64,000 nucleotides of DNA from an archaeon (GTDB lineage Archaea > Nanobdellota > Nanobdellia > Pacearchaeales > DTIR01): the NCBI GenBank assembly GCA_043799715.1, contig JAZDNM010000003.1, forward strand, positions 156,903 through 220,902. The letters run 5' to 3'. Numbering within the stretch: the first letter of the stretch is position 1; each line of letters opens with the position of its first letter. Of the stretch, positions 14,612 through 26,037 are shown piece by piece. A program made the translations under genes and the position numbers. Below the pieces are notes generated by a model. That model had not been told where the DNA came from, did no database searches, and was given only the letters and a program-made list of their open reading frames with translations.

Positions 14612-15631
14612 TCAGGAGTTGTTTGCCCTGAACTGGATTCTAAGGGCTTCTGCCTCCTCTCTCCTCGCTTTTCCTGATTTTATAATTTTCTTTTTTGGCA
14701 TAATGCAGATTGGAACAGTATCCTCATTTGCGTCGCTGTGCATTGCGGTGATTTCCGCGGCTTTCCTGACTGTTTTGCTATCTTGACTGCCGATTAAAAT
14801 GGAGGTTGGCGAGGGGATATCAACTGCTTCAAAAAGCAAATCATTCTTGCCTGCAATCTCCCTGATTTCTTTGTTTTCAATTTCATTCCTTCCGACAACC
14901 AGCTTTGCATTTGATATTCTGTAATGCCTGCCAATCTTGAGCAGTTCAATATCCTTCGAGCTTATTTTATTTTCATTTCTGAATAAGTCTTTTAATCTTG
15001 CCGCAAATTCCTTTTCGCAGAGCATGCAGCCCCCTCCTGGCTGTGGGAATGAAATCCTATATTTTTTTGCAAGTTCCATCTGCTGCTGCCTGTTTCTGCC
15101 CTGAATTGCAAGGAACTTGTCTCTGTTTATTAGTCCAGCTTTCTCAGCGCTTGTTTCAGACAGCAGATTTGCTGAAAGAGGTCTCAGCAGCTTTCCCCCC
15201 AGCCCTGATTCAATCTCAACATAGTCAAGGGCTTTTTTGTGCTGGGACATCGGTCTTTCATTCAGCACTTCGCCTGTTACAATTAGGTCTGCCTTGATTT
15301 TCTTGGCAAGTTTCTTTGCTTCCTTAAGCAAGAATATATGGCAGTCAATGCAAGGATTTATTCCTGAACCATATCCATGTTTTGGATGCCTTATTATTTC
15401 AAGATATTTCCTGAACAATTCCCCTTTTGTGCAGTCGATTACATGCAATTTAATTGTGTTCTCTTCTGAAAAATTAGTAGCATCCTCTGCGCTTCCGTCT
15501 GAACCAAAAGGCAGAATGAAGAAAACAGCTTCAACATCGCATTGCTCCTGCATAATCTTGCACGCCAGTCTTGAGTCCAATCCGCCTGACAGCAGGCAGA
15601 GTGCCTTGATTTTGCTTTTCTGCTTTTTCAT
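14612..15631 (-). CDS. PP-loop ATP pyrophosphatase, ThiI/MnmA-like tRNA sulfurtransferase (specificity unassigned)
   Basis: LLSGGLDSRLA PP-loop, NPCIDCH, GEVLNERPMSQ, GGGCMLC. Track ORF runs to 15691. I prefer the Met at 15631 (MKKQKSKIKALCLLSGG) because the upstream extension overlaps a small ORF. Confidence 0.7.
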   Translation of the reverse strand: MKKQKSKIKALCLLSGGLDSRLACKIMQEQCDVEAVFFILPFGSDGSAEDATNFSEENTIKLHVIDCTKGELFRKYLEIIRHPKHGYGSGINPCIDCHIFLLKEAKKLAKKIKADLIVTGEVLNERPMSQHKKALDYVEIESGLGGKLLRPLSANLLSETSAEKAGLINRDKFLAIQGRNRQQQMELAKKYRISFPQPGGGCMLCEKEFAARLKDLFRNENKISSKDIELLKIGRHYRISNAKLVVGRNEIENKEIREIAGKNDLLFEAVDIPSPTSILIGSQDSKTVRKAAEITAMHSDANEDTVPICIMPKKKIIKSGKARREEAEALRIQFRANNS

Positions 15632-15665
15632 AAGAAAAGACAAGAAAAACACGTTTAAAATCTTT

Positions 15666-15833
15666 TTATTTGCCCTGTATTCTTTTTTCAAGATTTCCCT
15701 GCTTCAGAATTATTTCATATTTATCTCTGTATTTTCTATCCAGAATATACACAAATCTTTTCTGCACATCCTGATAGCTGTCATCATCAGGAAAGGGGCT
15801 GTCTGCTTCCCCTTTTTTGTCATTCCAGCCCAT
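15666..15833 (-). CDS. Possible small ORF, 55 aa
   Basis: ATG at 15833 overlaps the end of the upstream ORF by 14 nt. Reads MGWNDKKGEADSPFPDDDSYQDVQKRFVYILDRKYRDKYEIILKQGNLEKRIQGK. Below the track cutoff and supported only by operon packing. Confidence 0.3.
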   Translation of the reverse strand: MGWNDKKGEADSPFPDDDSYQDVQKRFVYILDRKYRDKYEIILKQGNLEKRIQGK

Positions 15834-16236
15834 TTTCAACTCCGATTATATGCCTTTCAAGATTGCTGTATCTGCCAAGCTGCGGCTCAACTTTCTCCTT
15901 CCAGCATTTTTCATACTCAATAAAAAAAAGATTTTTCAGTTCTCCCTTATAATTCGCAAGCCGAAGGGCAACATCCTGCTCCTTGCTATCCTCCATCCCT
16001 TCAATCATCCTCAGAAGGTAGATAGCTGAATTTGATTTTAGTGTATCCATGACCTCCTTGATTGAATCTTCAAGTTTGCCTCCATTATGCCGAGAGCAGA
16101 ATGTTCCGAATGTAAAATTGCCAATGCCTCCGCCTATCCAGAATGAATTATATCCCATTATCCTGATTGGAATTTTTCCATTTCTTTCCCTGAATGTTTC
16201 ATTGCCAAGCATGGCTTTTGTCATGCCCATTTTCAA
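15820..16236 (-). CDS. Hypothetical protein, 138 aa
   Basis: Start overlaps the stop of the upstream Zn-finger ORF (4-nt overlap). No recognisable motif. Confidence 0.5.
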   Translation of the reverse strand: MKMGMTKAMLGNETFRERNGKIPIRIMGYNSFWIGGGIGNFTFGTFCSRHNGGKLEDSIKEVMDTLKSNSAIYLLRMIEGMEDSKEQDVALRLANYKGELKNLFFIEYEKCWKEKVEPQLGRYSNLERHIIGVENGLE

Positions 16237-16628
16237 TTACCGAAATCCTCCTCAAATTCTTTTGAATATCCTGCATGCTCTGAATCATAGTTGAATGATG
16301 TGAGAAAGCTCTCCACTGCATCTTTCTGAAGATTCAGCTTCATCAGGAAATTGTACATTTCCTCTGTGAAGCAGTAAGGGCATACTGCTGTCTGGTTTTC
16401 CCTGCAGATTGTGCATTCTGTCCCCGAATCTATGAACTTGTTCTTTATTCTGCTAGCATAGGAAACAATTTTCTTTTTGGCCTCGCTGCTGAGATTATTT
16501 GTTTCAATCCACTCTTTTATCTCTCCGGCTAAGCAGACGGGGCATATCGGATTGTGTATACCCTCATTGCATACAATACATAAGTTGTTTGAGTTAGATT
16601 TTATCATTTTAGCGTCAGAAAAAAGCAT
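16233..16628 (-). CDS. Hypothetical double zinc-finger protein
   Basis: Two CxxC...CPxC pairs (CIVC..CPVC and CTIC..CPYC). 131 aa. First gene of a co-directional string ending in the two PP-loop enzymes. Confidence 0.55.
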   Translation of the reverse strand: MLFSDAKMIKSNSNNLCIVCNEGIHNPICPVCLAGEIKEWIETNNLSSEAKKKIVSYASRIKNKFIDSGTECTICRENQTAVCPYCFTEEMYNFLMKLNLQKDAVESFLTSFNYDSEHAGYSKEFEEDFGN

Positions 16629-16879
16629 TCAAGAGCCGGATATTATATGGCTCTTATAATGCTGTGGTTTTAACGCCGCAGAGAATATAGCCGTGTCTAG
16701 ATACAAACATACCTGCAAATGCAGAATTCATCCACACGCTCTTTTTTATATCTGCGGACATCTTGAATAAATTAGGAGCCCGCGGTTTAAATAATTTTCG
16801 TTTGGAGTTTGGATTGGCATATTTAATTTGCTTTGCCTGCTTATGAAAAGTTTAAAAATATTCCCTGCCTGAAGATGGA

Positions 16880-17806
16880 ATGGAGAAAAATTATGATGTC
16901 GTTATTCTCGGTGCAGGTCCTGCGGGGCTCTCTTCAGGGATTTATGCTGCAAGATTTGGACTGAAAACACTTGTGATAAGCAGGGATATAGGAGGCATGA
17001 TGAACATGGCTTCGCTTGTGGAGAATTATCCGGGTTTCAGAGGCAGCGGAATAGAGCTTGCAATGAAGATGTCTGAACAGGCTAAAAATGCAGGCGCAGA
17101 GATGCTTCAAAGGAATATAAGCAACATAACAAAACAGAAAAACTCATTTAAAATCCAGACAGACAAGAACGAAATATTTGATGCAAGAGCCCTTATCATC
17201 ACTCTCGGGACAGAAAAAAGAAAACTGAATATAGACGGAGAAGATAAATTTCTCGGCAGGGGCGTTAGCTATTGCGCTACATGCGATGCTCCGCTTTTCA
17301 AGGGAAAAGTTACAGTTGTTGTCGGAGGGAGAAATTCAGCAGCACATGCTGCATTGCTTCTGGCAAGATACGCAAAGAAAGTATATATTGTTTACAGGCA
17401 GGGCAGGCTTAACTGTGATACATTCCTTTTGGATGAGCTAAACAAGAATAAATCCATTGAAATAGTTTACAATTCACTTCCTGCCAGAATCAAGGGACAA
17501 GACTCTGTAACAGAATTGATTGTCAGCAGCGAAGGCAGCGAAAAATCAATAAGAACAGATGGAATTTTTGTTGAAATAGGCTCTGTGCCTTTGACAAGCC
17601 TGGCAAAGAACCTTGGCTTGAGCCTTGATGAGGCAGGCTATATCCTTGCTGATGATAAGATGAATACCAATGTTACAGGGATTTACGTTGCAGGGGATAT
17701 TGTTGCAGGAAGCCTCAAGCAGATGATAGTTGCTTCAGGGCAGGGAGCAATAGCAGCAAGCTCGGCATATAATTTTTTAAAGGATAATAACAAAAGTGAT
17801 AAATAG
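16880..17806 (+). CDS. trxB: Thioredoxin-reductase-like flavoprotein (low-Mr TrxR fold) with degenerate NADPH-binding motifs
   Basis: FAD motif GAGPAGLSSG and redox CATC. Second dinucleotide motif is GGRNSA instead of GGGNxA. HRRxxxR is replaced by YRQGRLN. Confidence 0.8.
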   Translation: MEKNYDVVILGAGPAGLSSGIYAARFGLKTLVISRDIGGMMNMASLVENYPGFRGSGIELAMKMSEQAKNAGAEMLQRNISNITKQKNSFKIQTDKNEIFDARALIITLGTEKRKLNIDGEDKFLGRGVSYCATCDAPLFKGKVTVVVGGRNSAAHAALLLARYAKKVYIVYRQGRLNCDTFLLDELNKNKSIEIVYNSLPARIKGQDSVTELIVSSEGSEKSIRTDGIFVEIGSVPLTSLAKNLGLSLDEAGYILADDKMNTNVTGIYVAGDIVAGSLKQMIVASGQGAIAASSAYNFLKDNNKSDK

Positions 17807-17809
17807 AAA

Positions 17810-18004
17810 ATGGCTGAAAAATACAAGATTTTAGTTGACAAGAACAAATGCATAGGGTGCGGAAGCTGCGTTGCAGTCTGCGAGGGCAATTTTGAAATGA
17901 AGGACGGAAAGGCAGCTGCAATAAACTCTGCAAGTGATATGCCCTGCAACAAGGAAGCTGCTGAAATATGCCCTGTAAGCGCAATTACTATTAAGAAAGG
18001 GTGA
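17810..18004 (+). CDS. Small ferredoxin (single Fe-S cluster type)
   Basis: CIGCGSCVAVCEG ... CP motif. 64 aa. Starts 4 nt after the trxB-like stop. Confidence 0.75.
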   Translation: MAEKYKILVDKNKCIGCGSCVAVCEGNFEMKDGKAAAINSASDMPCNKEAAEICPVSAITIKKG

Positions 18005-18018
18005 GTATTCTAATTTTC

Positions 18019-18795
18019 TCAGCTTTTGAACGCATTAAAAAAATTATTGAAGAAATTGCTGTTTGGCATTCTTTTGCCGAATATGTGGGCAGAGAGTTTT
18101 TTGTATGACATACTTGCTTCTGATTTTGGTTTGTATATTACCGCAGGCATTCTTGCCGCAGCCGCCTCGGAAATCGCAGAATCTTCAGGAATAACTGAAA
18201 CAATAGGAAGCCCGAGAACCCTTTCTATCTCTCTTTTTGTCACCTCATATTTCTTATGCCTTACCTTGTTGACTATAATCCCTTCAACAGGCACATTCAT
18301 CTTTTTTGCCAGTTCGATTGTTTTTATTGCAGTGCCGATTGTGGGAAAATCAGGAGTCACGATGAGGAACAGGGCATCAGCAGCCTTAAGGCTTATTTTT
18401 GCGTCTTCTCCTACGCCCGGAGCTGAGTCAAGCAGTATCATATCATAATTGTTCAGGGATTTAAGCTTCTTCTTAAGGGAAATAGGATTGACTTTTCTTG
18501 GGTCATCAACAAGAGAAGAAGGAATGACATGCAATCCAGTCTTGTGCTTGTGCACTGAATGGAGAATAGACAAAGGGTCCTTTATAATATTGTAAAGGCT
18601 TATTGGATGGTATGTAAGCCCAAGATTAAGCCCCAAGTTCCCTGAATTGAGGTTTGTATCCAGAATCAAAACACTTTTCTTGAACATGCTTGCAGCAGCA
18701 GCGCCGATATTGATTACAGCAGTTGTTTTGCCAACGCCGCCTTTTGCAGAAACAATTCCCACTACTTTCCTGCCATTGCTTATGAGCCCTTCCAT
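18019..18795 (-). CDS. minD: MinD/ParA-family P-loop ATPase
   Basis: Deviant Walker A SAKGGVGKTT and Walker B ILLDSAPG. 258 aa. Confidence 0.8.
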   Translation of the reverse strand: MEGLISNGRKVVGIVSAKGGVGKTTAVINIGAAAASMFKKSVLILDTNLNSGNLGLNLGLTYHPISLYNIIKDPLSILHSVHKHKTGLHVIPSSLVDDPRKVNPISLKKKLKSLNNYDMILLDSAPGVGEDAKISLKAADALFLIVTPDFPTIGTAIKTIELAKKMNVPVEGIIVNKVRHKKYEVTKREIERVLGLPIVSVIPEDSAISEAAAARMPAVIYKPKSEASMSYKKLSAHIFGKRMPNSNFFNNFFNAFKS

Positions 18796-18898
18796 ATTTT
18801 TACCGCCTTTTTTTCGGATAGATGAGATGTTCGAGGCGGTTTATAAATATTTCCAAAATATTCGAAAGATTTATAAATCAATATGAACAAGATTTCAT

Positions 18899-19201
18899 AT
18901 GAAAAGTTCTGCATATTACCCCTTTTTCAGGAAATTGGCTAATCCGCTAAGGATATCAATAATCACATCTCTCGCTAAAAAAGAAGAAACAGTGAGCCAG
19001 CTGAGCAGGGAGATTGGGGTTGAGCAAAGCAAGTTATCCCATGCTTTGCATGAATTGTCTGGATGCTCTATAGTCAAAGCAAGAAAAGAGGGAAAGAAAA
19101 GAATCTATTCAGTTAGCAGGACAATATTGCCCATTTTGAATTTGATTAATGTGCACAGCCAAAAATGCTGCAAGTACTGCGCTTATGGGGGGAAAAAATG
19201 A
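18899..19201 (+). CDS. ArsR/SmtB-family HTH regulator with C-terminal Cys cluster
   Basis: PLRISIITSLAKKEETVSQLSREIGVEQSKLSHALHEL HTH. C-terminal CCKYC. Stop overlaps the iscS start (ATGA). Confidence 0.7.
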   Translation: MKSSAYYPFFRKLANPLRISIITSLAKKEETVSQLSREIGVEQSKLSHALHELSGCSIVKARKEGKKRIYSVSRTILPILNLINVHSQKCCKYCAYGGKK

Positions 19202-20361
19202 ATCAAACAAATAGGATTTATATGGATAATGCAGCAACAACGCCTGTTGCAAAGGAAGTTGCAGATGCAATGCTGCCATTTTTCTCAGAGCATTTCGGGA
19301 ATGCGTCAAGCATCCACAAGGAAGGGCAGGATGCAAGAAGGGCAATCGAGGATAACAGGAGAAAAATCGCAAAGTTTCTCAATGCAAATGAGGAGGAGAT
19401 AATATTCACAGGCTCTGGCAGCGAGAGCAACAATACAGCAATCAAAGGGCTTGCCTTGTCACAGCTTGGCAGGCAGAAAAAGCATATCATAACAAGCAAA
19501 ATCGAGCATCACGCAGTTCTTGAGCCATGCGAATTTCTCAAGAAGCAGGGCTTTAAGGTTACTTATCTTGATGTTGACAGTTCTGGACTGATTAACTTGA
19601 AAGATTTAGAAAAGGCAATAACACCTTCAACTTTGCTTGTTTCAATAATGCATGCTAATAATGAAATTGGAACAGTACAGGACATTGCTGCAATAGGAAA
19701 AATATGCAAAAACAAGGGGACCTTATTTCATACTGATGCTGTCCAGACATTAGGAAAGATTCCAATTGATGTAAAAAAGATGAATATTGACTTCCTGTCT
19801 GCTTCAGCGCACAAGATTTATGGTCCAAAGGGAGTGGGATTGCTTTATATCAGGAAGGGCATTAAAATTGAACCATTGCTGCACGGTGGAGGGCAGGAGT
19901 TTGGATTAAGAAGCTCAACAGAAAATGTTTCAGGCATAGCTGGCTTTGGGAAAGCAGTTGAATTATGCAGGAAAAACATGAAATCTGATGCAGGCAGGAT
20001 TGGAAAATTAAGGGATATGCTGATGAAAGAAATTCTAAAAATTCCCAATACAAGATTGAATGGGCATGCGAAACAAAGACTCTATAACAACACAAACTTT
20101 TCATTCCACGGAATAGAAGGCGAGTCACTTGTTATGCATCTTGATATGCAGGGCATAGCAGCATCAACTGGCAGCGCATGCTCGACAAAATCATTAAAGC
20201 CAAGCCATGTCCTTACTGCTATTGGCTTGGACCATGTCACTGCTCATGGCTCATTGAGATTAAGCATAGGAAGAAATGCAGCAGAAAAAGATATAATCTA
20301 CACAGTCCAATCTGTCAGGGAGATTGTTGAAAATTTAAGAAAGATAAGTCCTATAAATTGA
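19198..20361 (+). CDS. iscS: Cysteine desulfurase (NifS/IscS class)
   Basis: IYMDNAATTP N-terminus, PLP-Lys motif SASAHKIYGPKG, active-site loop STGSACS. Start moved from 19165 to ATG 19198, which overlaps the arsR stop. Confidence 0.9.
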   Translation: MNQTNRIYMDNAATTPVAKEVADAMLPFFSEHFGNASSIHKEGQDARRAIEDNRRKIAKFLNANEEEIIFTGSGSESNNTAIKGLALSQLGRQKKHIITSKIEHHAVLEPCEFLKKQGFKVTYLDVDSSGLINLKDLEKAITPSTLLVSIMHANNEIGTVQDIAAIGKICKNKGTLFHTDAVQTLGKIPIDVKKMNIDFLSASAHKIYGPKGVGLLYIRKGIKIEPLLHGGGQEFGLRSSTENVSGIAGFGKAVELCRKNMKSDAGRIGKLRDMLMKEILKIPNTRLNGHAKQRLYNNTNFSFHGIEGESLVMHLDMQGIAASTGSACSTKSLKPSHVLTAIGLDHVTAHGSLRLSIGRNAAEKDIIYTVQSVREIVENLRKISPIN

Positions 20362-20377
20362 TTGTCAAGGAGATAAA

Positions 20378-20614
20378 ATGAAAGCAAAATTAGGAACAAA
20401 AAAAGAAAGCGGAAAGATAACAGGCAATATGAGCTTTGCAGAAGTCATGCAAAAATATCCCGAAACAGCAGGGGTATTTATGAAACAGGGGATGTCCTGC
20501 TTTGGCTGCCCGATGGCTATGCAGGAGAGAATAGAGGAGGGTATTGCAGCCCATGGCAAGGATTCCAAAAAGATAATAGAAGAACTCAACAAAGCTGTAC
20601 AAAATAAAAAATGA
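20378..20614 (+). CDS. DUF1858 / hybrid-cluster-protein-associated redox disulfide protein
   Basis: MSFAEVMQKYPETAGVFMKQGMSCFGCPMAMQERIEEG matches the family signature (YPET..F...GM.C.GCP) as I recall it. Confidence 0.75.
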   Translation: MKAKLGTKKESGKITGNMSFAEVMQKYPETAGVFMKQGMSCFGCPMAMQERIEEGIAAHGKDSKKIIEELNKAVQNKK

Positions 20615-21213
20615 AAAATACCAAGAACATGGAAGAGAAGCTTATACAGATAGCAATAAAGCTCGCGAGAAGGGGAGAAGGCGGCTTGTTCATAGTTATT
20701 ACCGGAAAGAAGCCTGAATTCAGGAAGCTTGTAAAGCAGAATATCAAGCCTTTCAATATTCTTGAAGGCAAGAATGACAAATTGATTGAAAGCCTGGCAA
20801 CAATTGACGGGGCAGTTGTTGTAAACAAAGAGGGGAAAATGATTGCGTATGGAACCATGGTAAAGAGCAATATCCCTTTCAGGGGCTTCGGGACAAGGCA
20901 CGCCGCTGCATTAAGCGCTTCAAGGAATGGAAATATTTCAATTCTCAGTTCTGAAGAGGAGAGAAAAGTCAAGGTTTTCAGGAATGGAAGATACATAATG
21001 CAGCTTGATGCGCTTGAAAAAGGAATTGAAAAGAATGTTCCAAGGATAAGCACATTTTTTGAGAGTGTCGGAGCTGGTTTTCTTGGGACTCTGGGAGCAG
21101 CCACCTTGCTGCCTGGATTGGGCATAACAGTGATTCCGGGAGTTATAATATTTGGGAGTTCTTATTATGCAATCAAGTCCCTGATTGACAAATTAGGAGG
21201 CAAGAAAAAATAA
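20611..21213 (+). CDS. DisA_N/DAC-domain protein (putative diadenylate cyclase) with C-terminal membrane segment
   Basis: Aligns by eye to CdaA-type DAC: GGLFIVI, IDGAVVV (DGA motif), GFGTRHAAALSAS (RHR motif present as RHA), LSSEEERKVKVFRNG. C-terminal hydrophobic GAGFLGTLGAATLLPGLGITVIPGVIIFGSSYY. Start overlaps the upstream stop (ATGA). Confidence 0.7.
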   Translation: MKNTKNMEEKLIQIAIKLARRGEGGLFIVITGKKPEFRKLVKQNIKPFNILEGKNDKLIESLATIDGAVVVNKEGKMIAYGTMVKSNIPFRGFGTRHAAALSASRNGNISILSSEEERKVKVFRNGRYIMQLDALEKGIEKNVPRISTFFESVGAGFLGTLGAATLLPGLGITVIPGVIIFGSSYYAIKSLIDKLGGKKK

Positions 21214-21214
21214 G

Positions 21215-22804
21215 ATGACAAAAGAGAACATAAATTACAGCAAGAAGGTAATGCAGATGTTCATGAACCCGAAGAATGTAGGGGAAATAAAAAACGCTGA
21301 TGGCATTGGAAAGGTTGGAAATCCTGTATGCCTATTGCCGCAAGAGAAAATTCATTCCAATCCTGAATTGAAGAGCATTAATACTTTAAACAAAAAAGAT
21401 TTAGTTATGAGTCATCTAGGACACGATAAAATTATAGACATTTTTATTAGGAAATATAATGGGCGTGTAATAGAACTTAAAAATAAACTTGGGAGTATCA
21501 ATTTAACACCAGAGCATCTTGTCTTGGCTATTAAAATCCCCAGAGGTGATAGATTTAAGAGAAATAAAGGAAAAAAAACTCTAACTCCATCTTGGTATCA
21601 TGCTACAGATTTGAAAAAAAATGATATAGTGCTCTATCCTATTTTAAAAGAGGTCAAGGATATTGAATCTATCAAAATAGATATTTCAAGGGCGAAATAT
21701 GATTTTAGGAGTAAAAAAATTCCAAATAAAATTCCTATTAATGCTGATTTTCTGAGATTGGCAGGATATTATTTATCAGAAGGCGGTATATCCCTAAAAC
21801 CATGTAAAACATTTATTAACTTTACATTTAATATTAATGAAAAAGAATTCGTAGAGGATATCAGAAATATTAGCAGAAAAATATTTGATTTGGATATAAA
21901 AGTTAAGGAAATTCCTGAAAGGAAAACAATTCAGGTATTTATTTACAATGCTATTTTAGCAAGATTTTTTTATGATTTGTTTGGAAAAGGAGCAAAAAAT
22001 AAAAAGATTCCTAATTTTATGATATTTTTACCTGTTGAAAAGCAAAAAGAATTGCTTATTGGACTTTGGAGAGGGGATGGATATATCAATGTTAATAGGC
22101 CTGGTGCTAGAGCAGGTTTTGCTACTATTTCTTTTCAGTTGGCTCATCAAGTTAAACTAATATTATTAAGACAAAAAATAATTCCTTCAATATATACTGA
22201 TAAAGAACGGATAAGGGAAGGAGTTAAGCATGAAGAGAGTTACAGAATACATGTTGGACAGAGAGAATCTTTGAGAAAATTATGTTTTTTGTTTGGTTTA
22301 ACCTATATCCCAAAATCATACCCTTCTGTTGATAATTGGTTTGATAACAATTATTTGTATACCCCAATCACACAAATCAAAAATCGAAAGTTTTCTGGTG
22401 AGGTTTATAATTTAGAAATAGAAAAAGCACATTCCTTTACAACTGAAGGATTTTGCCTTCATAATTGCGGGGATTTGATGTTTATATATATAAAAGTTGG
22501 CAAGAAGAAAGGCAAAGAAGTTATTGACGATGTTAAGTTTAAGACATTCGGCTGCGCTGCAGCAATCGCAACTTCATCAATGATAACTGAACTTGCAAAA
22601 GGCAAAACTCTTGAAGAAGCAATGAAAATAACAAGAGGCAATGTTGCGGATTCGCTTGAAGGCCTGCCTCCAATAAAAATGCACTGCTCAAACCTTGCTG
22701 CAGATGCGCTGCATGAGGCAATAATTGATTATTACAAAAAGCAGGGAAGAAAAGATATGCTTGCCAGATATGCTTCACTTAAACCGCATGAGCACGAACA
22801 TTAA
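21215..22804 (+). CDS. iscU: IscU/NifU-type Fe-S scaffold interrupted by an intein (529-aa precursor, predicted 150-aa mature protein)
   Basis: N-extein YSKKVMQMFMNPKNVGEI..GKVGNPV. C-extein CGDLMFIYIKV..FKTFGCAAAIATSS..PIKMHCSNLAADALHEAI. The three cluster Cys and the invariant PxCGD are restored after removing residues 39-417. Confidence 0.9.
   Translation: MTKENINYSKKVMQMFMNPKNVGEIKNADGIGKVGNPVCLLPQEKIHSNPELKSINTLNKKDLVMSHLGHDKIIDIFIRKYNGRVIELKNKLGSINLTPEHLVLAIKIPRGDRFKRNKGKKTLTPSWYHATDLKKNDIVLYPILKEVKDIESIKIDISRAKYDFRSKKIPNKIPINADFLRLAGYYLSEGGISLKPCKTFINFTFNINEKEFVEDIRNISRKIFDLDIKVKEIPERKTIQVFIYNAILARFFYDLFGKGAKNKKIPNFMIFLPVEKQKELLIGLWRGDGYINVNRPGARAGFATISFQLAHQVKLILLRQKIIPSIYTDKERIREGVKHEESYRIHVGQRESLRKLCFLFGLTYIPKSYPSVDNWFDNNYLYTPITQIKNRKFSGEVYNLEIEKAHSFTTEGFCLHNCGDLMFIYIKVGKKKGKEVIDDVKFKTFGCAAAIATSSMITELAKGKTLEEAMKITRGNVADSLEGLPPIKMHCSNLAADALHEAIIDYYKKQGRKDMLARYASLKPHEHEH
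21329..22465 (+). mobile_element. Intein with LAGLIDADG homing-endonuclease domain (379 codons) inside iscU
   Basis: Cys1 (CLLPQEK), block B LTPEH, LAGLIDADG motifs LAGYYLSEGG and LLIGLWRGDGY, block F/G VYNLEIEKAHSF..GFCLHN, followed by +1 Cys of CGD. Confidence 0.85.
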
Positions 22805-22806
22805 AA

Positions 22807-23007
22807 ATGGACAGCCATAGGAGAACTTTGATGAAGAGCATAACATGGAGAGTTATCGCCCTGTTTGTCGCTTACTTTGTGGCTTATGCTTTTACAAGCA
22901 AGCCGCTTGAATCAGGGAGCATTGCAATAACCGTGAATCTGATAAACATGGTGGGCTATTATTTTCATGAAAGAGTCTGGAACAAAATAAATTATGGGAG
23001 GAAATAA
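22807..23007 (+). CDS. DUF2061-like small membrane protein
   Basis: KSITWRVIALFVAYFVAYAFT ... NMVGYYFHERVWNKI. 66 aa. Confidence 0.6.
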   Translation: MDSHRRTLMKSITWRVIALFVAYFVAYAFTSKPLESGSIAITVNLINMVGYYFHERVWNKINYGRK

Positions 23008-23008
23008 A

Positions 23009-23167
23009 ATGGAACTGGAATTGTGCAGCAGCGGATGCTGCCCCAAGGTGAGAACTGCAAAAGACAGCGTTGAGATAGGCGAGACTGGAAATCTCGTGAA
23101 GCTGAAAAAAGCAGAATGGAACACGCTTGTTGATGCTGTGCTCAAGGGTAATTTGGGGAAGATTTAA
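23009..23167 (+). CDS. Small Cys-containing protein, 52 aa (below the ORF-track cutoff)
   Basis: ATG at 23009 preceded by GGGAGG. Reads MELELCSSGCCPKVRTAKDSVEIGETGNLVKLKKAEWNTLVDAVLKGNLGKI. Starts 2 nt after the upstream stop. Confidence 0.45.
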   Translation: MELELCSSGCCPKVRTAKDSVEIGETGNLVKLKKAEWNTLVDAVLKGNLGKI

Positions 23168-23180
23168 ATCAAACTGAAAG

Positions 23181-23675
23181 ATGGAAAACAGGAAAGTTGG
23201 CTACTTGATAATCGGAATGGCTTTTGTAATAGGGGTAGTGGTATTCTTGTTCAATAATGCCCTAAAAACAATTGTGATGGCAACGTGCATTCACGGCACA
23301 ACATGCCCTATGTATGGGGACATCAAGACACAAACAATTATCAGCCTTGTGCTTATAGGGGCAATACTAATCATAGGGCTTGTGCTCATATTCAACAAAG
23401 AAAAGGAGAGGATAATAGTCAAAATCAAAAAGATAAAGAATGAATTCGCAGAAAAATTAAAGGAAGATAAAGAAAAAAATCTCAAATTTCTGAACAGGGA
23501 AGAAAAGGCTGTTTATGGTATCTTGATGAAAGAAGGCAGTATGTTCCAAGCGGATATTGTTGACAAGTCGGGATTCAGCAAGGTTAAGGTAACAAGAATC
23601 CTTGACAGGCTCGAAGGCAAGCAGCTTATCGAGAGAAAAAGAAGGGGAATGAGTAATATTGTGATTTTGAAATAG
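23181..23675 (+). CDS. Membrane-tethered winged-helix regulator (2 TM plus C-terminal wHTH)
   Basis: TM helices at the N-terminus, K/E linker, then EEKAVYGILMKEGSMFQADIVDKSGFSKVKVTRILDRLEGKQLIERKRRG. Confidence 0.65.
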   Translation: MENRKVGYLIIGMAFVIGVVVFLFNNALKTIVMATCIHGTTCPMYGDIKTQTIISLVLIGAILIIGLVLIFNKEKERIIVKIKKIKNEFAEKLKEDKEKNLKFLNREEKAVYGILMKEGSMFQADIVDKSGFSKVKVTRILDRLEGKQLIERKRRGMSNIVILK

Positions 23676-23766
23676 GCATTTTTCTTTACTGAAACCAGTT
23701 CCATACAATCGCTTAATAGCTCTTTTTTTATTAGTTTGCTATGAAAAATATGATAGGAGGTGTAAA

Positions 23767-23964
23767 ATGAATGCATGGATAATTGCGGCGGTTCTTATTG
23801 GGCTGCTTGTTATTGCGGGAGTATCCTTTGCTGGAATCAGTGCAGCACAGGAATCAAAGCAGATAAGCTGCAAGAGCTGCGGAGGCAAGTGCACAGCAGA
23901 AAGAAACTGCGGTTTGGAAAGCTGTGCGGCAACTGCAGGCAAGGGCTGTAATTGCGGAAGATAA
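23767..23964 (+). CDS. Small exported/anchored Cys-rich peptide (65 aa, 7 Cys in the last 31 residues)
   Basis: GGAGGTGTAAAATG SD-start. N-terminal hydrophobic WIIAAVLIGLLVIAGVSFAGISAA. Tail CKSCGGKCTAERNCGLESCAATAGKGCNCGR. Followed by long T-runs. Confidence 0.6.
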   Translation: MNAWIIAAVLIGLLVIAGVSFAGISAAQESKQISCKSCGGKCTAERNCGLESCAATAGKGCNCGR

Positions 23965-23978
23965 TAGTATGCTAACTT

Positions 23979-24000
23979 GTTTTTCTTTTTTTCTTTTTTT
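23979..24000 (+). terminator. T-rich tract (archaeal oligo-T terminator candidate)
   Basis: tgtttttctttttttcttttttt, about 15 nt after the Cys-rich peptide stop. Confidence 0.5.
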
Positions 24001-24044
24001 CTAAAAACAAAGTTTTTTTAAAGCAGCATGCCCCCATTGAATAG

Positions 24045-24977
24045 ATGAGGCTGAAATATATTTTTTTATTCATTGTTCTGGCATTTTTTCTGCTTTTACT
24101 TGCATTCTTTATCAATGGCATTATTCCCCGCACTCAGCCCCCGGGGCTGAAGTTGAACATATCTGAAAATATTTCCCCTGATGTGAACGTATTTGTTCTT
24201 GACCAGTTCAGAAAAGGGATAACTTCCATTGAAACAAATGATGAGTTCTTTCCACAGCAAAAAGGATTAGCTGAAGGAACAGTTTATGGCTTTAGAGTAA
24301 TTGATGAGAAAGGAGAAGTAAGCATGCCGGTGTATGAAACATTCATTGCAAATTCGCCTGATTGGGAAGGATGGGAAACAGGAAAAAGGTATTATCATGG
24401 GCTTAGACCAAGCAATTATATAATTGAACTTTTAGTAATAAAAAATGGCATTGGGACTGTAACCGCAAGGACAAATCTGTCCTCATTCAGCTTATATGCG
24501 CAGCGCGCAGAGCTTGAAAAACTGATTCTTGATAATTGCAGCAGCTTAATGACTGAGCCTCTTGTTGACAGGGATGGCTGGTCCCGTGAAAGCAAAATTG
24601 CTACATGCGTTACAAAGATTGCAGTTGAACAGGGAAACATTGATGTTTGTAATCTATTGTTCAAGCTGTTTAATGCGACTAATACAGATGATTGTATCAG
24701 GGACTATGCAATTACCATGGGAGATACGTCTATATGCGACCTTACTGGCATGCCGAAGTCCAGGGGATTCTGCAAGGCAAAAATAACTCATGACTGGACA
24801 GAATGCAGAAAAATCTCGTGTGATATCTCGTGCGCCATGGAAGCGCTTGAGATACAGCAGGACTTATGCATCCAGTGGTATGCAATTGAGAATAGGAATG
24901 CCAGTCTTTGCAATGAGATAAAAAGCGAGGCGTATAACATGAAAGAAATCTGCCTGAAGATAACAGCAGAAAGTTGA
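24045..24977 (+). CDS. Hypothetical secreted protein with Cys-rich C-terminal repeats
   Basis: Signal/anchor IFLFIVLAFFLLLLAFFI. C-terminal half has repeated spaced Cys (IDVCNLL..DDCIRDYA..TSICDL..GFCKAKI..). Confidence 0.55.
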   Translation: MRLKYIFLFIVLAFFLLLLAFFINGIIPRTQPPGLKLNISENISPDVNVFVLDQFRKGITSIETNDEFFPQQKGLAEGTVYGFRVIDEKGEVSMPVYETFIANSPDWEGWETGKRYYHGLRPSNYIIELLVIKNGIGTVTARTNLSSFSLYAQRAELEKLILDNCSSLMTEPLVDRDGWSRESKIATCVTKIAVEQGNIDVCNLLFKLFNATNTDDCIRDYAITMGDTSICDLTGMPKSRGFCKAKITHDWTECRKISCDISCAMEALEIQQDLCIQWYAIENRNASLCNEIKSEAYNMKEICLKITAES

Positions 24978-25011
24978 AAAAGGAATTTAAAGAAATGGGG
25001 ATTCTTGGGGA

Positions 25012-26037
25012 TTATTTCCAAAAATTAAAGCCTTGCGGCGGGAACCTGTTCTCAACATCTACAGTAATGATATAAATGGGGCTTGATGTGGGGATGATAA
25101 TTTTTGCAGTTGTATGTGAAGGGACAATAATCTTGCTGTCATTTATTTCTGCGCCTTCCAAGGCAAGGCTGTTTAAATCAAGATCCTCCTTGTTCCCGAA
25201 TATTCTCAAGATGTTCATTGGCTTGTCATCGGAATTTGTTTCTTTTAATGTGTAAGTGAAATTATTGCCTGACATTTCAAGTAAAACCTCCTGCTTTGTC
25301 ATACTAGAATCATAAACAAAATAATTTCCGGGCCTTGCATCAATATTTTTCATGAATACGAAAGCAGAAAAGACAAGAACTATCGCAAAGAGGATTGAGA
25401 AGTTTGCCAATGCAGGATGATTCCTGAAAAATGGCGGCTTTGCCCTTGATGCTATGCCCTGCAAAAGCAGATAAGATGTTGAAATCAGCAAAAACATCAA
25501 AGATGGTCCGAATAGAAAAAATCCAATCAGACTCTGGTTTAAAGGCGGGGCGTAAAACAAAATCCCTTTAAATTCCCTAAAAAGACCCCAGCCAAACCCT
25601 GCAGCAAGAACAATAGCCAATATAAAACTAACAATCTCAAAGGATAGATGATGACTTTTTGATGCGATAAGATAAATTGAGACAACAACTGCCAGAATAA
25701 TTATCGGGAGAGTAATCAGATTTAACAGCAGGGGAATAGCGCTCAGGAAAAGTAATACTGCAATAAAAGAGCGGATGATTATATCTGAAATGGCTCTTGG
25801 CTCTATTTTTTTATCATTTGCATTAATAGCCCCGCCTACAAATTCTATGATGGTTTTTATTAATCCTATGATGAAAGTGAGGACACTGGCAAAAAAAATA
25901 ATGGAAGCAGCCGGCTGAACCTGTATCTTATTCATAAGAGCCTTGTTGCCCAGTGTGAAAAAGTCCAGCACGATTATGGAAACAGCTAAGAGCATCAGAT
26001 GATAACCCCTTTTGAATCTCATCCCTGTTAAAAACAA
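25012..26037 (-). CDS. Hypothetical polytopic membrane protein with C-terminal soluble domain
   Basis: About 7 hydrophobic helices across the first ~230 aa. No family motif recognised. Confidence 0.55.
   Translation of the reverse strand: MFLTGMRFKRGYHLMLLAVSIIVLDFFTLGNKALMNKIQVQPAASIIFFASVLTFIIGLIKTIIEFVGGAINANDKKIEPRAISDIIIRSFIAVLLFLSAIPLLLNLITLPIIILAVVVSIYLIASKSHHLSFEIVSFILAIVLAAGFGWGLFREFKGILFYAPPLNQSLIGFFLFGPSLMFLLISTSYLLLQGIASRAKPPFFRNHPALANFSILFAIVLVFSAFVFMKNIDARPGNYFVYDSSMTKQEVLLEMSGNNFTYTLKETNSDDKPMNILRIFGNKEDLDLNSLALEGAEINDSKIIVPSHTTAKIIIPTSSPIYIITVDVENRFPPQGFNFWK

Follow-up and report, generated by a model that had tools for sequence, protein, structure and literature searches.

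What is known of cyclic di-AMP (c-di-AMP) in archaea rests mainly on DacZ, a diadenylate cyclase (DAC) of Haloferax. The archaeal DacZ/CdaZ type is represented by DacZ of Haloferax volcanii and CdaZ of Methanocaldococcus jannaschii, and the CdaA (DacA) enzyme of Firmicutes is anchored in the membrane through three N-terminal helices (PMC6741144). PanS of the PanDA defense system of Pseudomonadota is, in the available part of a 2026 preprint, a soluble protein of about 150 amino acids with little beyond its DAC domain, paired with a 2TM-beta effector; a membrane-bound ancestry is suggested there for minimal DACs (PMC13640721). Here, we describe a DAC-domain protein of 200 amino acids from an archaeon of the order Pacearchaeales (assembly GCA_043799715.1), encoded in a window of 64,000 nt that covers positions 156,903 to 220,902 of contig JAZDNM010000003.1. 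Its gene lies between those for a cysteine desulfurase (IscS) and a scaffold protein (IscU), in an operon for iron–sulfur (Fe-S) cluster assembly. The reading we favor, with a probability a little above even (about 0.55), is that the protein belongs to a distinct archaeal class of active, membrane-tethered diadenylate cyclases and that expression of its gene is linked to an ArsR-controlled Fe-S operon.

The DAC domain named in the initial annotation was recovered with PF02457 well above the cut-off (Table 1), and the likeness to CdaA seen there by eye extends to both motifs and fold. A family profile aligns D66-G67-A68, G94-T95-R96-H97 and S114-E115-E116-E117 to the DGA, GTRHR and SEE motifs of Bacillus CdaA. 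An AlphaFold2 model built with 20 homologues (mean predicted local distance difference test score, pLDDT, of 79.2, above 90 in the core) matches CdaM (8ofj) and CdaA (8c4j and 6hvm) in Foldseek at a probability of 1.00, with TM-scores on the target of 0.66–0.68 for CdaA and, for 8c4j_B, a TM-score of 0.68 and a root mean square deviation of 3.8 Å. All three motifs are invariant in the 20 homologues, which share 51–75% identity, and S114-E115-E116 is presumably the S-x-E metal/phosphate site. Only four residues, D68, G69, G103 and R105 of EcPanS, are reported in the available text of the 2026 preprint as fully conserved across bacterial DACs (PMC13640721), and the counterparts of all four are invariant in the 200-residue family. 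On these grounds, the protein is predicted to catalyze the synthesis of c-di-AMP from ATP.

The initial annotation had singled out RHA, where bacterial enzymes have RHR, as unusual. The variant is indeed a family trait, A98 being nearly invariant in the 20 homologues, but it does not set the family apart. G-A-R-H-M stands in two haloarchaeal proteins that score as DacZ equivalogs (495 and 481 bits; cut-off 430), RHL in a DacZ-like protein of Methanocella, RH(L/Q/I) or KHL in representatives of DacZ-like clusters, and RHK in the DisA of the host genome itself. Since DacZ equivalogs read RHM, the last Arg of RHR does not define archaeal DACs, and, given the RHM of the equivalogs and the RH(L/Q/I) of the DacZ-like representatives, we do not read RHA as the mark of a dead enzyme. 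The classic mutagenesis, in the available part of the report, replaced RHR by AAA as one block and is therefore uninformative on the last Arg alone (PMC3328451). The RHA and RHM variants would help to show how much of the canonical RHR motif is needed.

None of the four class models tested, those for DacZ, DisA, CdaA and CdaS, accepts the protein, all scores falling far below the cut-offs. DacZ is its nearest DAC relative by sequence and its best NCBIfam match, is likewise archaeal, and also has a residue other than Arg at the third RHx position. Its match to NF041371, however, is limited to residues 59–134 and reaches 32.6 bits where the cut-off is 430. It lacks the N-terminal PK_C-like domain, for which there is no room because the DAC domain begins at residue 19, and it carries a putative C-terminal hairpin. 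The two types coexist in a complete Methanocella genome, which has a DacZ-like gene and one member of the 200-residue family as a second cyclase. CdaA resembles the protein in its motifs, in providing the best structural matches (8c4j/6hvm), and in being a membrane-tethered DAC, as is putatively the case here, but the anchor is N-terminal in CdaA and putatively C-terminal in the window protein, whose N-terminus is hydrophilic (TIGR00159, 18.1 bits against 188.8); the operon partners also differ, being CdaR and GlmM for CdaA and IscS, IscU and DUF1858 here. DisA (NF010009, 23.7 bits against 201) is excluded as well, the true DisA of the genome being a separate gene, and the CdaS model gave 16.3 bits against 225. 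PanS is comparable in its shortness; the window protein, in contrast, has its own hydrophobic tail and no effector-like neighbor.

The initial annotation had also described a C-terminal membrane segment unlike the known architectures, and a hydrophobic tail is present in a protein that all four class models miss. Its hydropathy on the Kyte–Doolittle scale peaks at 2.18 over residues 166–180, a Pro-Gly break lies in the middle of the segment, and a Lys-rich tail follows; the sequence is thus that of a putative membrane hairpin, both ends of which would be cytoplasmic. Twelve hairpin positions are invariant in the 20 homologues (E151, G154, G156, G159, G162, G171, P176, G177, F181, G182, Y185 and A187). 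Several other short or degenerate relatives (P0198, P0203, P0210 and P0212) keep the helix and the Gly-rich hairpin; this degenerate set lacks DGA and GTRH or starts at the conserved Met130, and some members may be fragments of partial genes.

The same architecture recurs across a family of proteins of about 200 amino acids, in which the DAC domain is followed by a long helix and then by a conserved C-terminal hairpin, hydrophobic and rich in Gly. With an E limit of 1e-3, a word-indexed search returned 193 homologues. All of the best 120 carry PF02457, and nearly all of them are 193–224 amino acids long (one has 245). An exhaustive profile search of 1.84 billion representatives gave 859 matches under the same limit, of which 129 reach an E of 1e-10 and 51 an E of 1e-30. 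Full-length proteins of 190–230 amino acids ranked first, followed by DacZ-like proteins of 260–300 amino acids with a C-terminal DAC and by proteins of about 440 amino acids, which match over the DAC domain only. Fused forms were not widespread, the exceptions being a few proteins with N- or C-terminal extensions and one metagenome relative of 527 amino acids (P0136), in which an intein of about 340 amino acids directly follows the catalytic GTRH, the +1 residue being Ser. Inteins favor functionally critical sites. To our knowledge, no intein has been described in a DAC protein, although no search aimed at one was made.

In species-representative genomes (67 archaeal loci), the family is found in Pacearchaeota/Woesearchaeota/Nanoarchaeota, Micrarchaeota, Methanocellales, Methanoperedenaceae, Syntrophoarchaeum and one Thermoplasmatota bin; the closest homologues of the window protein are labeled Pacearchaeota, Woesearchaeota or Nanoarchaeota. 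A maximum-likelihood tree separates a clade of DPANN and Micrarchaeota from one composed mostly of Methanocellales and Methanoperedens. DAC open reading frames (ORFs) of suitable size (215–228 amino acids) occur in 10 of 41 sampled Halobacteriota genomes, the Methanocella one being the one whose identity was checked. Among 201 genomes sampled from one DPANN order (G numbers), 160 have a DAC domain, in most cases DisA, and 70 have the putatively tail-anchored family. The family usually provides a second cyclase in addition to DisA or DacZ and is the only DAC match in eight genomes (G017, G037, G092, G109, G116, G142, G169 and G191). In G104 (locus L091, 1830–3589), ORFs and Pfam matches place it next to DisA, in divergent orientation across about 95 nt, and G156, of the same genus, has the same adjacent divergent pair (contig C4, 43292–44459) by match coordinates only. 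Automatic annotation already labels family members as diadenylate cyclases.

The host genome (719 kb in 15 contigs, 87.5% complete) itself contains DisA in addition, identified by 322 bits on NF010009 (cut-off 201) and the presence of the DisA-linker domain, and a DHH/DHHA1 gene starts 4 nt 3' of it. Both here (L084, 1486–3181; source genome G000, contig C2) and in G161 (L093, 3360–5433), 4–10 nt separate DisA from a DHH/DHHA1 gene that encodes about 345 amino acids, which looks like a candidate c-di-AMP synthase–phosphodiesterase pair in DPANN.

The operon itself is a tightly packed string of genes on one strand, running from 18899 to 23675 of the window (Table 1). Genes were taken from the six-frame ORF list, junctions were read directly from the sequence, and domains were assigned with Pfam and NCBIfam profiles at curated cut-offs. 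The seven-gene string of the initial annotation (ArsR, IscS, DUF1858, DAC, IscU with intein, DUF2061 and a Cys peptide) agrees with ORF coordinates and profile matches alike, and the ATGA overlaps at 19198 and 20611 and junctions of −4 to +16 nt are seen as described. Its extent needs one change, as an eighth gene, of the MarR/DUF7343 type, probably belongs to the unit as its last gene because no intergenic T-run is met before those at 23679–23683 and 23723–23729. Homologues of this eighth gene lie downstream of DAC/IscU in six other loci (L014, L016, L028, L030, L031 and L032). The IscS start codon overlaps the ArsR stop codon and the DAC start codon overlaps the DUF1858 stop codon, in both cases as ATGA; the remaining gaps are 16 nt (IscS–DUF1858), 1 nt (DAC–IscU), 2 nt (IscU–DUF2061), 1 nt (DUF2061–Cys peptide) and 13 nt (Cys peptide–MarR). 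Shine–Dalgarno-like runs precede the IscS, DUF1858 (AAGGAGAT, 5' of the ATG), IscU (AGGAGG within the last DAC codons) and 23009 (GGGAGG) starts, and a TATA-like box lies about 21 nt 5' of the ArsR ATG. This packing suggests that the string is a single transcript.

Cysteine desulfurase and U-type scaffold are thus encoded in one cluster, as judged by profile scores, and the SUF core (PF01458) has no match in the 87.5%-complete genome; the operon is therefore the sole Fe-S assembly system detected in it. Like the minimal archaeal ISC system, it contains IscS/NifS and IscU, which are adjacent in most relatives. Unlike that system, it has DUF1858, DAC and an ArsR-type regulator in addition, and IscU is split by an intein. 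The intein is inserted immediately 5' of the cysteine of the CGD motif, and the TIGR03419 score of IscU falls just short of the cut-off, the match being interrupted by the intein. In the DUF1858 protein, C41, G43, C44 and H59 are invariant across 12 homologues; among four ArsR homologues beside isc genes, C56 and C91 are invariant and C94 is present in three.

Table 1. Features of the Fe-S operon and of the DAC-domain protein, in window coordinates.
Feature	Position	Strand	Basis
TATA-like box TTTATAAATA, divergent promoter region	18841–18850	.	Read from sequence; putative archaeal promoter element
TATA-like box TTTATAAA, divergent promoter region	18871–18878	.	Read from sequence; putative archaeal promoter element
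ArsR/SmtB-family regulator, 100 aa, C56, ends CCKYC (CxxC)	18899–19201	+	Pfam HTH_5, E 1.5e-8; NCBIfam NF033788, 62.6 bits (cut-off 55)
Cysteine desulfurase, NifS/IscS type, 387 aa	19198–20361	+	TIGR03402, 551.4 bits (cut-off 530.75); Aminotran_5, E 3.8e-95
DUF1858/redox-disulfide protein, 78 aa, CxGC motif	20378–20614	+	PF08984, 55.3 bits (32.2); TIGR03980, 75 bits (44.95)
DAC-domain protein, 200 aa, putative tail anchor	20611–21213	+	PF02457, 44.9 bits (cut-off 27)
DAC catalytic domain, residues 19–127	20665–20991	+	Pfam envelope PF02457, E 1e-11, 44.9 bits (27)
Gly-rich hydrophobic C-terminal segment, residues 146–188, putative membrane hairpin	21046–21174	+	Kyte–Doolittle
IscU/NifU_N scaffold with intein, 529 aa	21215–22804	+	NifU_N, E 2.2e-39, 134.9 bits (22); TIGR03419, 177.8 bits (cut-off 187.9)
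LAGLIDADG intein in IscU, residues C39 to N417	21329–22465	+	LAGLIDADG_3, Intein_splicing and TIGR01443 matches; boundaries from translation
DUF2061 small membrane protein, 66 aa	22807–23007	+	PF09834, 61.8 bits (cut-off 23.1)
Cys peptide, 52 aa, CSSGCC	23009–23167	+	ORF; 57 aa if started at 22994
MarR/DUF7343 membrane-anchored winged-helix protein, 164 aa	23181–23675	+	PF24034, 43.8 bits (cut-off 27.6)

Conservation of this gene order was examined by tblastn of the window proteins against 80 related loci (L numbers), and the isc context reported in the initial annotation recurs: IscS and/or IscU stands beside DAC in 16 of the 80, in at least four gene orders. IscS-DUF1858-DAC-IscU is the order of the window and of L003, L004, L010, L016, L019 and L025. 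A NUDIX gene lies between DUF1858 and DAC in L028 and L032 (IscS ... DUF1858-NUDIX-DAC-IscU), of which L031 shows the NUDIX-DAC-IscU end only. The order IscS-DAC-DUF1858-HAD-IscU is found in L005 and L006, and as far as DUF1858 in L007, and IscU-x-DAC(-MarR) in L014 and L030. In L029, DAC lies 2.9 kb from an intact IscS-DUF1858-IscU, and in L051 a DAC of the divergent clade lies about 750 nt 5' of ArsR-IscS-IscU, the two being separated by a gene on the other strand. No DUF2061 gene stands beside DAC in the 80 related loci.

Linkage, defined as DAC and IscU on one strand and no more than 2.5 kb apart, was then counted in the 201 sampled genomes. Among the 70 with the DAC, 10 have no IscU match and 11 have one for which no position was listed, which leaves 49 comparable by coordinates; 15 of these 49 (15 of the 70) are linked, namely two of three in family f1, eight of 11 in f4 and five of 55 in f9. 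If two genes were placed at random in a 700-kb genome, far fewer than 1% of genomes would show them at such a distance. Of all clustered DAC neighbors, none recurs more often than IscS and IscU. In a careful tree of the DAC proteins, the label 'isc-linked', borne by 17 of the 68 rows, takes 8 changes (7–8 across bootstrap trees), at least three of which are forced by well-supported branches, so that the linkage appears to have been rearranged, lost or gained repeatedly and yet to have persisted.

According to the favored reading, the hairpin would tether the cyclase to the inner face of the membrane, and two DAC domains would pair head to head and turn two ATP into c-di-AMP, the cyclase being the second one beside DisA. 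Beyond domain, fold and catalytic motifs, this reading draws on the intein placed at GTRH in P0136, on the DisA neighbors in G104 and G156 and the DisA–DHH/DHHA1 pair of the host genome, and on the operon packing and the recurring linkage. Because the DAC gene lies inside the sole Fe-S assembly operon found, it would be transcribed, and in part translationally coupled, with ArsR, IscS, DUF1858 and IscU. The level of DAC should then track the signal of the Cys-bearing ArsR-type regulator, which may be redox state, metal or Fe-S status; we liken this regulator to Fe-S-sensing or thiol-sensing ones. Shared transcription under an ArsR-type regulator would be the most economical meaning of the placement, and the DAC protein is better assigned to signaling than to cluster assembly, 10 of the 70 DAC-bearing genomes lacking an IscU match and IscU being no more frequent among genomes with the DAC than among those without it. 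The protein also contains no cysteine, and its being an Fe-S protein was rejected on that ground. Of the two proposals in the initial annotation, second-messenger coupling to Fe-S or redox status is possible at the level of shared transcription only (the family lies mostly outside isc clusters and also occurs in genomes without an IscU match), and the non-cyclase role is disfavored by the catalytic motifs, which are invariant in the 20 homologues.

Several observations weigh against this reading. The hairpin has a pLDDT below 50 in the AlphaFold2 model, and its first half is merely moderately hydrophobic. Two relatives (P0213 and P0219) keep the hairpin although GGN replaces DGA and GTRH is lost, and a third (P0179) keeps it with the catalytic core deleted; since the hairpin outlasts the catalytic core in these degenerate proteins, the C-terminal module may be more than an anchor. 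DAC and IscU are apart in 34 of the 49 comparable genomes, so the linkage may mean little, and counts over related genomes are not independent. In the 87.5%-complete genome, the receptor domains RCK_C (PF02080) and DarA (PF06153) were not found, and an Rfam scan of window positions 15000–26000 at E up to 0.1 returned nothing, c-di-AMP riboswitches included. The genome does encode two CBS-pair proteins, which are generic.

The strongest competitor, which we hold to be a distinct but clearly lesser chance, is that the placement is incidental. A housekeeping c-di-AMP synthase would have been shuffled into the isc operon of a compact genome, its position would carry no regulatory meaning, and the recurrence would reflect one ancestor followed by decay. 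It draws on the 51 of 67 archaeal loci that have no isc gene nearby, where the neighborhoods are varied and include DUF4870 and PCNA/primase genes and, in Methanocella, a glycosyltransferase, GtrA, AhpC and a PAPS-reductase-like gene. Ten of the 15 linked cases fall in families f1 and f4, a quick tree is compatible with a single origin, and neither DUF2061 nor the Cys peptide belongs to the conserved part of the cluster. However, the linkage outlasts at least four internal gene orders and a DAC divergence to about 50% identity, and the 7–8 changes in the careful tree, at least three on well-supported branches, as well as the rank of IscS and IscU among recurrent neighbors, speak against simple decay. 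A further point on that side comes from G161, a genome without the tail-anchored DAC, in which a 121-amino-acid ORF, IscS, an 80-amino-acid ORF, IscU, DisA and DHH/DHHA1 follow each other on one strand (L093, 583–5433) with a gap of 24 nt between IscU and DisA, though this is one case in about 150 DisA-bearing genomes and close to chance level. DisA beside IscU was accordingly rejected as a general pattern, G161 being the only instance among the positions compared.

A bolder and distinctly doubtful extension of the favored reading is that c-di-AMP signaling in these DPANN archaea is connected to the Fe-S, iron or redox state of the cell and not to potassium or osmotic balance, with the cyclase co-expressed with, and possibly gated by, IscS-DUF1858-IscU, and with the Cys-bearing ArsR as sensor. 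Compatible with it are a genome in which neither RCK_C nor DarA was found, the DisA-DHH pair directly behind IscU in G161, and a conserved Gly-rich hairpin that could link the enzyme to a partner in the membrane, for example an iron permease.

Somewhat less probable still is a direct coupling at the protein level, in which DUF1858, IscU or IscS would bind the DAC protein and switch the cyclase, so that c-di-AMP reports Fe-S or redox status. GlmM is encoded in the operon of CdaA, and RadA and DisA offer a further precedent for such a pair. GlmM binds and inhibits CdaA, as stated in the available part of one report (PMC8573169). In the operon, translational coupling joins DAC to DUF1858 and a gap of 1 nt separates the DAC stop codon from IscU, and among linked arrangements DAC adjoins DUF1858 in 10 and IscU in nine (L025 ends at DAC). 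An obligatory partner or functional tie is opposed by the lack of an IscU match in 10 of the 70 genomes, by the usual distance of DAC from isc genes, and by the frequency of IscU, which is no commoner with DAC (60 of 70 genomes) than without it (105 of 131). The DAC protein also has neither a cysteine nor another obvious sensor feature. A predicted complex of DAC residues 1–148 with DUF1858 scored 0.20, where the mark is 0.32, and weighs neither way.

Least probable is a DAC fold that is no cyclase and serves ATP or c-di-AMP binding or another nucleotidyl transfer in sulfur or Fe-S metabolism, or of which the C-terminal module is the functional part: the hairpin-retaining P0213, P0219 and P0179, 12 invariant hairpin residues (more than a plain anchor requires) and a genome in which no known c-di-AMP receptor domain was found would fit it, but it is made unlikely by catalytic residues that are invariant, including all those reported as universally conserved in DACs in the available preprint text (PMC13640721), by metal- and ATP-binding motifs that align to CdaA, and by closest relatives outside the family that are DacZ-type cyclases.

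A 2025 paper states, in its available part, that dacZ is absent from DPANN (PMC12699388), and the DAC domain in 160 of 201 genomes of one DPANN order is to be set against this statement. A cyclase gene inside the sole Fe-S assembly operon suggests an undescribed input for c-di-AMP signaling, and the soluble DAC domain is small and easy to assay. In the literature, part of which is represented by titles or the beginnings of abstracts, no paper was found that ties a DAC or c-di-AMP to IscS/IscU or Fe-S assembly; in one paper that names both diadenylate cyclase and cysteine desulfurase, the only mention is a row in a table of transposon hits. The combination of DAC and C-terminal hairpin may already be listed in a 2023 census of 22 DAC families, whose coverage is said to extend to candidate archaeal phyla (PMC10249747).

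The isc islands of relatives contain additional genes, for hemerythrin, cupin, FTR1-type iron permease and NUDIX proteins (L003, 6259–6777; L004, 7154–7846; L019, 6991–7293; L014; L032, 5439–5894) and also for HAD proteins, and we take DUF1858 plus hemerythrin to resemble a split repair-of-iron-centers protein. Inteins at the same IscU site, 60–62% identical, occur in L003 and L006, and IscU ORFs of 508–562 amino acids are present in six more genomes of the order (G006, G022, G039, G071, G089 and G148). The Cys peptide matches no Pfam or NCBIfam family, and an Atlas look-up led to unnamed small-protein clusters only. Downstream of the operon, two plus-strand ORFs without a Pfam family encode a membrane peptide of 65 amino acids with a Cys-rich tail (23767–23964) and a Cys-rich protein of 310 amino acids with an N-terminal hydrophobic segment (24045–24977). 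Upstream, the region 16880–18795 encodes a thioredoxin-reductase-like flavoprotein (308 amino acids) and a 4Fe-4S ferredoxin (64 amino acids) on the plus strand, and a MinD/ParA-type ATPase on the minus strand, divergent from the ArsR gene.

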